Shown piece after piece: positions 8,533 through 8,545 of a stretch of DNA of 15,731 bases (the first letter of the stretch is position 1; each line of letters begins with the position of its first letter). The DNA is from a virus (Duplodnaviria > Heunggongvirae > Uroviricota > Caudoviricetes). The notes under the pieces are model-generated. The model saw only the letters and a program-made list of their open reading frames with translations. It did no database searches and had not been told where the DNA came from. Location of the stretch: the IMG/VR virus record IMGVR_UViG_2529292976_000006, one strand, 5' to 3'. Made by a program: the position numbers and the translations under genes.

Positions 8533-8545
8533 ATGCTCTTTAACA
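8533..8545 (+). promoter_or_regulatory. boxA-like antitermination motif (nut-like)
   Basis: Exact 13-mer TGCTCTTTAACAA, matching the rrn/lambdoid boxA consensus as recalled, on the strand of the leftward early operon downstream of the immunity terminator. No convincing boxB hairpin identified downstream. Confidence 0.4.

Follow-up and report, generated by a model that had tools for sequence, protein, structure and literature searches.

The 15,731-nucleotide stretch of Caudoviricetes DNA described here (IMG/VR record IMGVR_UViG_2529292976_000006), which will be referred to as the window, carries an exact copy of the transcription signal boxA, and this motif opens a conserved, structured RNA element of ~165 nucleotides (nt) at the start of the early-left operon. 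The window is 100% identical to the Shiga toxin (Stx)-converting phages PA2, VT2phi_272 and ArgO145 and ~97% identical to TL-2011c and to P13374, the phage of the O104:H4 outbreak, and it is a PA2/P13374-type Stx2a phage. The + strand of the window corresponds to the leftward direction of phage lambda. The left operon of PA2 extends over ~16 kilobases (kb), as far as int, and the only antiterminator annotated in this phage is Q.

The immunity region occupies the part of the window that precedes the element. On the - strand are found a PR-like promoter (5012-4984) and cro (4792-4995 in the PA2 annotation, 4756-4995 in the list of open reading frames, ORFs), which is recognized by Pfam Cro. The + strand carries a cI-type S24 repressor gene (5055-5768), followed by genes for an Eco57I-like methylase (5863-7332) and a BsuBI/PstI-type endonuclease (7329-8282). 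The transcript of these immunity and moron genes is predicted to end at an intrinsic terminator at 8301-8330 (+), which consists of an 8-pair stem (8301-8322) with six G-C pairs and then a T-run. An earlier sequence-only reading of the window had placed boxA about 200 nt downstream of the immunity terminator, and this stem with its T-run is indeed found at that distance.

Beyond the terminator lies a PL-like sigma-70 promoter, TTTACA-17-TATATT (8426-8454, +), which matches 10 of 12 consensus positions and would initiate transcription near 8461; boxA follows ~75 nt downstream of this promoter. A similar arrangement is found at the homologous loci, where a promoter-like site invariably precedes boxA by 35-75 nt and usually comes right after a terminator. 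In phi80, the counterpart of this site is the annotated O-L/PL region. The sequence GAAACATCG (8467-8475), near the predicted PL start, is common to the window and the phi80-type leader and has variants in MB07152 and Edno5; the promoters themselves differ. The operator repeats of OR and OL have only 6-7-mers in common, which is consistent with the published account of these phages (PMC4587872).

Between the promoter and the first conserved ORF, rha, at 9143, there are ~680 nt. The first 80 nt of this leader are C-rich and G-poor (C 0.33, G 0.20), a rut-like composition, and from boxA to about 8865 the + strand is G+C-rich and non-coding. One ORF of 65 amino acids, 8431-8628, overlaps boxA and has its ATG inside the promoter-like site. 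It has no Pfam or PHROG match, and its homologous regions differ by insertions or deletions of 1, 3 and 5 nt and by compensatory RNA substitutions. With no family match and with frame-breaking changes in its relatives, this ORF was rejected as a real coding gene, and there is no sign of its translation. Further along the + strand are a second promoter-like site, TTGACT-17-TATATT (8866-8894; 10 of 12 consensus positions), directly upstream of the gene for an IsrK-family small RNA (8901-8976), and then a C4 antisense RNA (9001-9088), rha (9143-9790) and, from 9861 onward, kil, a gene of unknown function, a gam-like gene, recT, the gene for a YqaJ exonuclease (exo), an SSB-like gene and further genes.

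The boxA motif

The exact boxA 13-mer, TGCTCTTTAACAA, is present in a single copy in the window, at 8534-8546 (+). The sequence-only reading was right about its occurrence once on the early-left strand, but the coordinates that it gave, 8533-8545, are one base off. Its estimate that the motif is beyond chance is borne out, since the 13-mer is absent from all 200 dinucleotide-preserving shuffles of the window. The experimentally derived gamma-proteobacterial boxA consensus, GYTCTTTAANA (Baniulyte et al. 2017, PMC5725501), has its sole match in the window at 8535-8545, where 0.05 matches would be expected, and the boxA of the window is a perfect match both to this consensus and to the boxA of ribosomal RNA (rrn) leaders, UGCUCUUUAACAA. 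From established knowledge of such motifs, it is presumed to be a site for NusB and NusE (S10) on the nascent PL RNA. A one-mismatch copy, TGCTGTTTAACAA, lies antisense within recT, at 10706-10718 (-); this is at the level of chance, because 17 of the 200 shuffles hold at least two matches when up to two mismatches are allowed.

In BLAST comparisons of the intergenic region, boxA is often the exact point from which homology to other prophages starts. In all homologues the motif is conserved as G[CT]T[CT]TTTAACAA, and the flanks upstream of it are unrelated. The forms seen in an alignment of eight sequences are TGCTCTTTAACAA, TGCTTTTTAACAA, AGCT..., CGCT... and CGTTCTTTAACAA, and boxA is retained in 25 of 25 distinct sequences obtained by BLAST and genome searches. 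Two of the retrieval patterns contained TTTAACAA and so carried a risk of circularity, and a pattern made up of fold motifs only was therefore run against metagenomes. In this boxA-free retrieval, a boxA-like 13-mer was found at the same position in all 36 of the model-confirmed elements, a few of which have single-base variants of boxA such as TGCTCATTAACAA and AGCTCTTTAATAA. Because these 36 elements carry boxA in place when it played no part in finding them, boxA and the fold can be considered as one unit. The distance from boxA to the helix P0 of the fold is kept at ~12-16 nt across elements, and boxA and fold were never seen apart.

Taken as sequence comparisons, these results support the view that the boxA of the early-left (PL) transcript is authentic and has been kept by selection. 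They do not support the earlier suggestion of a relic of a nutL site, given that boxA has been kept throughout both sets of sequences, in several genera and next to unrelated upstream flanks.

The region just ahead of boxA is less constant. In the window, a small hairpin, GUCG-UACGGCG-CGAC (8502-8518, +), is found 16 nt upstream of boxA, a position like that of the rrn boxB, and its sequence is not conserved. Other lineages have different hairpins ahead of boxA, for instance GGCGGACAGCAAGUCGCC in phi80. In the phi80-type leaders (L001 4983-5012; L005 1097-1068), the hairpin GGCGGACAGCAAGUCGCC abuts boxA and a C-to-U change yields UGCUUUUU. For these two reasons the phi80-type hairpin and boxA together were flagged as terminator-like, and boxA in this lineage might also contribute to a pause or attenuator.

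The RNA fold and its distribution

Directly 3' of boxA lies a multi-helix RNA of ~140 nt (8559-8696, +), and boxA together with this five-helix fold makes up the ~165-nt element. The fold is predicted to be closed by P0, in which CAGCGUCAAU (8559-8568) pairs with GUUGGCGCUG (8687-8696), both strands being assigned from single-sequence folding and from duplex prediction across lineages. The core, P1-P5 (8571-8683), is taken from an RNAalifold consensus. It comprises P1 (8571-76 / 8678-83), P2 (8582-84 / 8668-70), P3 with a UAAA loop (8587-90 / 8595-98), P4 with the conserved GCGAUCCGG loop region (8599-8600 / 8632-33 plus 8604-13 / 8619-28) and P5 with a GAGA tetraloop at 8645-48 (8636-41 / 8656-63 plus 8642-44 / 8649-51). 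The hairpin CACG-TAAA-CGTG that the sequence-only reading had pointed out at 8587-8598 exists, and corresponds to helix P3 of this larger conserved fold. With a stem of 4 base pairs and its UAAA loop, P3 is the first hairpin 3' of boxA, 41 nt downstream of it, and no lambda-type boxB is present within 40 nt, as that reading had also concluded. Its scope did not extend to the coupling of boxA with the ~140-nt RNA, to the identity of the module with the phi80 PL leader or to the intrinsic terminators downstream.

Comparative evidence for the fold comes from several alignments. RNAalifold, applied to the eight-sequence MAFFT alignment, returns a multi-helix fold with compensatory changes in 15 of 33 pairs. 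In alignment A4 (25 distinct sequences), 96.4% of positions are paired and 17 of 33 pairs are changed on both sides, and in A5 (70 distinct sequences) the corresponding values are 98.7% and 16 of 33; both alignments were fitted to the covariance model and hence lean towards the structure, and the MAFFT-based result, which is independent, agrees with them. Slid controls reach at most 41% pairing and at most 4 double-changed pairs for A4, and at most 44% and at most 3 for A5, and none of 500 shuffles matched the observed pairing support on four of five measures. Duplex predictions indicate that the P0 pairing is kept by different sequences across lineages, as with AGCACA/UGUGCU in Xenorhabdus and Edno5; in the recombinant HK225, P0 is broken. 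The fold includes several G-U pairs, from which the functional strand is taken to be the + strand.

Alternative identities for parts of this region were considered. A search of 8400-8900 against Rfam 15 gave nothing at E <= 10 except a spurious eukaryotic long non-coding RNA. Inside P4 and P5 there is an arginine-rich ORF of 12 codons, MREYPRARARTA (8626-8664), which is unlikely to be translated because its frame is not preserved in relatives; it was rejected as a relic of an N gene on the same ground. The sequence GGCGCTGAC (8690-8698), which could be seen as half of a P22-type boxB such as that of the 933W-type prophage, is the 3' strand of P0 and covaries. An N-gene relic in 8547-8865 was accordingly discarded, its boxB-like piece being a strand of P0 and its arginine-rich ORF not being kept in frame.

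The element is widely distributed among related phages. Positions 8534-8850 of the window are ~95% identical to the phi80 PL leader (X13065 1080-764), which lies directly downstream of the annotated O-L/PL, and the region from 8534 to ~8712 is also found in HK225, in Klebsiella phage KO-TP1, in Edwardsiella phage Edno5 and in diverged Escherichia coli prophages, including an e14-like one. Searches for the element made use of R1, a covariance model of boxA plus the P1-P5 fold, which finds one copy in the window with a score of 202 bits (E about 6e-41). Each of 27 loci, which represent Escherichia, Enterobacter, Kosakonia, Huaxiibacter, Salmonella, Klebsiella, Edwardsiella and Xenorhabdus, holds a single copy according to R1. 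The same is true of 100 more sources, of which 95 are IMG/VR contigs, four are additional genome contigs and one is the first 50 kb of PA2. The element is thus single-copy in all 127 loci, which were retrieved by similarity or by a boxA-containing pattern, and equally so in the 36 element-bearing metagenome contigs. No further R1 copy is present in the rest of the 63.5-kb PA2 genome, and R1 finds none in the 933W-type prophage and none in the HK022 PL-PR region at E <= 1. A first genome-wide pattern scan was set aside as too loose, most of its 87 hits being chance matches in unrelated phyla; among those given to R1, only Enterobacterales matched, and four hits in gammaproteobacterial metagenome-assembled genomes failed.

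A second, nutR-like copy was not found by R1 in the window, in PA2 or in phi80, and no boxA within 2 mismatches is present on the PR strand of the window. On the PR side, where the operon in the window shows no terminator-like sites on its own (minus) strand, a second copy would not be needed. Upstream of the element, a same-strand cI/LexA-type repressor gene was recognized with seven probes in 96 of 123 contexts, ending at a median distance of 642 nt, and these repressors are diverse.

A proposed antitermination signal and its alternatives

In lambdoid phages of the classical kind, the leftward operon would be expected to carry N close to PL, and the sequence-only reading had found no such gene. 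This holds for the window and for the whole of PA2. Pfam and PHROG scans of the early-left ORFs of the window gave nothing N-like, and tblastn of complete PA2 at E <= 0.5 gave no match with six N/Nun-type probes (lambda, P22, phi21, 933W, Nun and Edno5; the lambda, P22 and phi21 sequences served only as probes), nor with phi80 N98 or HK225 gp40. As a positive control, Pfam N_peptide does recognize the 933W-type N (58.5 bits) and Edno5 gp49 (29.2 bits). The 'antitermination' ORF26 of P13374 was rejected as an N, being an ORF6N-domain protein. Across 112 downstream contexts, an N-like gene is found in 2, phi80 N98 in 5 and HK225 gp40 in 10, and the first downstream ORFs belong to 52 unrelated families. 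The 98-residue 'N' of phi80 (L005 432-728, X13065) has no arginine-rich motif, no Pfam match and only a PHROG of unknown function, and its label in the 1988 record appears to be positional rather than functional.

A canonical same-strand intrinsic terminator is a regular companion of the element: it is found downstream in 87 of the 112 contexts, at a median of 530 nt after the element, and in 86 of those 87 more same-strand ORFs lie beyond it. Such terminators include the one that follows Nmad5 in the W619 prophage, tL1 of phi80 and, in the window, a strong intrinsic terminator within isrK (8956-8971 plus T7), which is the first terminator that PL transcripts would meet. Judged by the order of its parts, the layout is that of lambda PL-nutL-N-tL1 with N missing.

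Given a genuine boxA, no N gene and no lambda-type boxB, boxA itself is most economically taken to use Nus factors in the rrn manner, independently of N. To this extent the earlier proposal of an rrn-type, N-independent boxA stands, but the motif is not the stand-alone signal that was envisaged, as it is coupled to a covarying multi-helix RNA. Because the element opens the early-left operon of phages that lack N, antitermination from PL without a phage protein is probable. We propose, with a probability of roughly 0.55, that boxA and P0-P5 form one cis-acting, N-independent, Nus-factor-assisted antitermination signal that acts on the nascent PL transcript and requires no protein of the phage. 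A bipartite RNA signal of this kind is the simplest model in which every conserved part has a role.

NusB and NusE bind boxA RNA and, with NusA, NusG and SuhB, render RNA polymerase resistant to Rho on rRNA and CRISPR leaders, whereas lambda requires boxB-N to extend antitermination to intrinsic terminators. In the mechanism envisaged here, PL would fire after prophage induction, and NusB/NusE (S10) would bind boxA ~75 nt into the RNA and, together with NusA, NusG and SuhB, form the kind of assembly on the polymerase that is known from rrn and CRISPR leaders. The adjacent fold, perhaps by contact with the polymerase or with host factors, would replace boxB-N of lambda or the put RNA of HK022, and stabilize or extend the modification. 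Rho would then no longer halt the polymerase on the ~680-nt untranslated leader, and the polymerase would pass the IsrK intrinsic terminator (8956-8976) and any polarity imposed by C4 to get to rha/ant, kil, gam, recT, exo and the rest of the ~16-kb operon. Transcripts from the promoter-like site at 8866-8894 would lack boxA and would stay under the C4 lock; modified PL transcripts would override both this lock and the IsrK terminator. There are precedents for the separate parts, in that long untranslated RNAs are shielded from Rho by boxA/Nus complexes where no N is present (PMC7665894, PMC4807359), and in HK022 put RNA alone achieves antitermination at intrinsic terminators (PMC9378689).

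A number of considerations weigh against this proposal. Complexes of the rrn type formed at boxA counter Rho, and we know of no case in which they overcome intrinsic terminators efficiently; read-through of tL1-like terminators would rest wholly on the activity proposed for the fold. A phi80 'N gene' and nutL are said to have been named by Tanaka and Matsushiro in 1985 and by Ogawa in 1988, so that in phi80 a protein partner is possible. Edno5 (L011, with the element at 2946-3127 and an N-like gene at 3687-4007) and a further locus, L126, have the element plus a P22/933W-like N homologue ~0.5 kb downstream. The sampled diversity is biased, because the retrieval patterns required conserved loop motifs. 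The commonest boxA variant, that of the phi80 type, is UGCUUUUUAACAA, which carries C4U, and strong NusB/NusE binding is for this reason not assured in every member; a C4T/T6C double mutant of the suhB boxA, which includes the same position, abolished SuhB recruitment (PMC5725501).

The features described above also permit other readings. It is conceivable, if unlikely, that boxA alone is an anti-Rho device of the rrn/CRISPR type on a long untranslated leader, and that the fold is a separate RNA (a small RNA released by processing, a domain that governs stability or processing, or a host-factor decoy) that rides along in the way that C4 is cut from the P1 immI leader. The ~680-nt leader does hold other RNA genes, isrK and C4, and begins with 80 nt of rut-like composition; boxA-only protection of untranslated RNA has been documented (PMC7665894), and the size and complexity of the fold, with its GNRA loop and conserved junction strands, are more than a simple protein-binding hairpin needs. 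However, boxA and the fold never occur apart and keep their spacing to P0, the fold is not followed by a terminator or T-run that would release a discrete small RNA, and the downstream intrinsic terminators are left to be explained. Many members, moreover, have a short leader with a gene within 60-200 nt, so that protection of a long leader from Rho is no general need. A different role for the fold, which we regard as doubtful, would be that of boxB in a nut-type site for an unrecognized phage-encoded antiterminator, the protein working with Nus factors at boxA. The order of boxA, RNA structure, first gene and terminator copies lambda PL-nutL-N-tL1, the first PL gene of phi80 has historically been labeled N, HK225 gp40 has the basic stretch KKRQKPRKQ, and Edno5 and L126 have their N-like gene 0.5 kb downstream. 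No protein family, however, accompanies the element, as is evident from the occurrence of N-like genes, N98 and gp40 in 2, 5 and 10 of the 112 contexts and from the 52 families of first ORFs; phi80 N98 is without an arginine-rich motif or Pfam match, no N-like protein is encoded in the window or in complete PA2 at E <= 1, and the upstream repressors are diverse as well.

A negative role for boxA, like that in the suhB leader, would have its bound Nus factors bring about early termination by Rho or prevent translation and thereby damp early-left expression, which we consider highly improbable. Both suhB and a ParE-like toxin gene are known to be repressed through boxA (PMC5725501), and the phi80-type hairpin with its U-rich boxA is terminator-like. 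In the known negative cases, though, boxA lies within ~50 nt of the start codon. Here, hundreds of nt separate boxA from the nearest conserved start codon, and the element is not followed by a conserved gene; damping would explain neither the coupled structured RNA nor the downstream terminators. Least credible is a 13-mer without present function, either a decaying nutL remnant or a chance match. The absence of boxB and N would suit such an origin, as would the homology of 8713-8844 to the leader of a 933W-type N gene, by which N-containing relatives are known to exist. The comparative data already contradict it: no shuffle of the window holds the 13-mer, the motif is conserved beside unrelated 5' flanks in all of the genera from Escherichia to Xenorhabdus named above, and the 933W-type nutL differs in sequence at this place and has no boxA.

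As an antitermination signal, the element would belong with the cis-acting signals on early phage RNAs, and it can be compared with each of these. Like lambda nutL, it lies just downstream of PL, between the immunity region and a tL1-like terminator, begins with boxA and presumably acts on nascent RNA. Unlike lambda nut, it has no 15-nt boxB hairpin (a ~5-base-pair stem with a GNRA-like pentaloop) and instead a ~140-nt fold of 5-6 helices, it has neither an N gene nor a nutR copy, and its boxA is the full rrn consensus, in place of the weaker CGCUCUUA of lambda. With rrn and CRISPR leaders it shares an identical boxA (UGCUCUUUAACAA, several members having the following UUU in common as well) and a promoter-proximal position on untranslated RNA, and the rrn type needs no phage protein; the non-conserved hairpin often found ahead of boxA can likewise be compared with rrn boxB. 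The element differs from rrn leaders (boxB-boxA-boxC; NusA/B/E/G, SuhB and S4) and from CRISPR leaders in its conserved complex fold 3' of boxA, and in an operon that is mostly protein-coding and contains strong intrinsic terminators. The EAR RNA of the Bacillus eps operon is similar in being a structured RNA of ~120 nt within a long operon that allows read-through of distal terminators without a dedicated phage protein. Its sequence and fold are unrelated, it lies mid-operon, without boxA and in Firmicutes, and Rfam, which includes EAR, gave no EAR match in the window.

The put sites of HK022 and HK639 offer a further parallel, in that these are N-less lambdoids with a structured RNA right after PL and with intrinsic terminators far downstream to suppress; the put of HK639, reported by King in 2011, is said to be a single left-operon copy, as is the present element. 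A put site is, however, ~70 nt long with two stems and no boxA, and acts through the beta-prime zinc-binding domain of the polymerase with no need of Nus factors, compared with ~165 nt including boxA here, and no put sequence or structure match to the element was found (R1, HK022 PL-PR region, E <= 1). The sequence of HK022 putL was read from the genome (L003), with its numbering checked against PMC9378689. By eye, a 19-nt resemblance with an apparent compensatory A-U to U-A swap can be seen between 8502-8520 of the window, GTCGTACGGCGCGACTTAA, and HK022 putL 4-23, GACGAACGGCGCGTCTTTAA (L003 8308-8289). It lies outside the conserved module and R1 is empty in HK022, and homology to put on this basis was rejected; because the rest of put is absent and the hairpin is not conserved in relatives, the resemblance is probably a coincidence. 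The phi80 PL leader is the same element as that of the window, with a C4U boxA and another first gene, that for the 98-residue 'N', where the window has instead acquired an immI-like isrK-C4-rha module. In its presumed working the element comes nearest to nut, put and rrn leaders, yet it is distinct from all three, having no boxB, N or nutR, no put fold and more than a bare boxA.

To our knowledge, bypass of early terminators in N-less lambdoids is known only for put RNAs of the HK022 type. A survey from 2025 still assumes put-like mechanisms for N-less lambdoids (PMC12315714), and some early regulatory genes of PA2-type (O157:H7 PST2) phages were not identified by Yin et al. (PMC4587872). Neither the covarying fold nor its occurrence across N-less phages was found described in the searchable full-text literature, which here excludes the phi80 papers of the 1980s and King 2011, and the boxA component has probably already been noticed in phi80. 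More tentatively than the proposal itself, one may ask whether the element is a third kind of phage antiterminator RNA beside nut and put, in which an rrn-grade boxA recruits Nus factors and SuhB, the ~140-nt fold locks this complex on the polymerase or binds polymerase or another host factor, and intrinsic and Rho-dependent terminators alike are ignored over a 16-kb operon. It could then be the early-gene switch of phi80 and of Stx2a phages of the O104:H4 and O157:H7 clade-8 type.

Among the carriers of the element are phi80, a classic laboratory phage and common contaminant, and Stx2a phages from the 2011 O104:H4 outbreak strain and from O157:H7 PST2 strains. If the proposal is correct, Nus-factor/boxA biology would extend beyond rRNA, suhB and CRISPR arrays, a portable, protein-free antitermination part could be possible, and it would become clear how induced PL overrides the IsrK terminator and the C4 lock on an antirepressor-like gene. 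With a compact RNA, a fold supported by covariation and a predicted dependence on host factors, the question is directly addressable. Edno5 and L126 should be useful for asking whether the element and N are redundant, cooperative or, in the manner of Nun, concerned with exclusion.

Neighboring leader RNAs and genes

The small RNAs of the leader are well supported by their families. The IsrK-family RNA (8901-8976, +) matches Rfam RF01394 over the full model length with 58.7 bits, the gathering threshold being 50, and the C4 antisense RNA of the P1/P7 immI type (9001-9088, +) matches RF01695, again over the full model length, with 77.1 bits against a threshold of 45. Within C4, CCCUUGAUUG (9043-52) is complementary to CAAUCAAGGAGG (9122-33), which includes the ribosome-binding site of rha, and UUGUGAGAAC (9059-67) is complementary to CUUCUCAC (9092-99). 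The C4 RNA of P1 is said, after Biere et al. in 1992, to silence ant through a translational block that in turn leads to termination by Rho. The product of rha (9143-9790, +), the first translated gene of the early-left operon, is an Rha/antirepressor-like protein according to Pfam Phage_pRha (2.1e-32), a PHROG for transcriptional regulator / anti-repressor and the PA2 annotation. The isrK-C4 tandem upstream of rha thus resembles the antisense lock of P1 immI combined with a Gifsy-1-like isrK, located inside a lambdoid PL operon.

Between the element and isrK, a long irregular hairpin of ~130 nt (8713-8844, +) lies in the untranslated leader, outside the core element, and shares 91.7% identity with positions 5001-5132 of a 933W-type prophage of E. 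coli O157:H7 TX 265-1 (L002), where it sits between a P22-type boxB, GCGCTGACAAAGCGC, and an intact N gene (5150-5533). Hundreds of E. coli genomes have a match to this hairpin; phi80 has it as well, but P13374 and HK225 do not. It probably corresponds to the RNase III-sensitive N-leader hairpin of lambda, retained without N. In the same prophage, the N gene at 5150-5533 encodes an intact protein of 127 residues (Pfam N_peptide, 58.5 bits) and is represented in RefSeq only by a 69-nt pseudogene for an 'incomplete antitermination protein', a call that looks like an annotation error.

Finally, the methylase and endonuclease genes (5863-8282) lie between cI and PL on the cI strand, in the slot that is occupied in lambda by rexAB, and a lysogen would therefore express restriction-modification from the immunity transcript.

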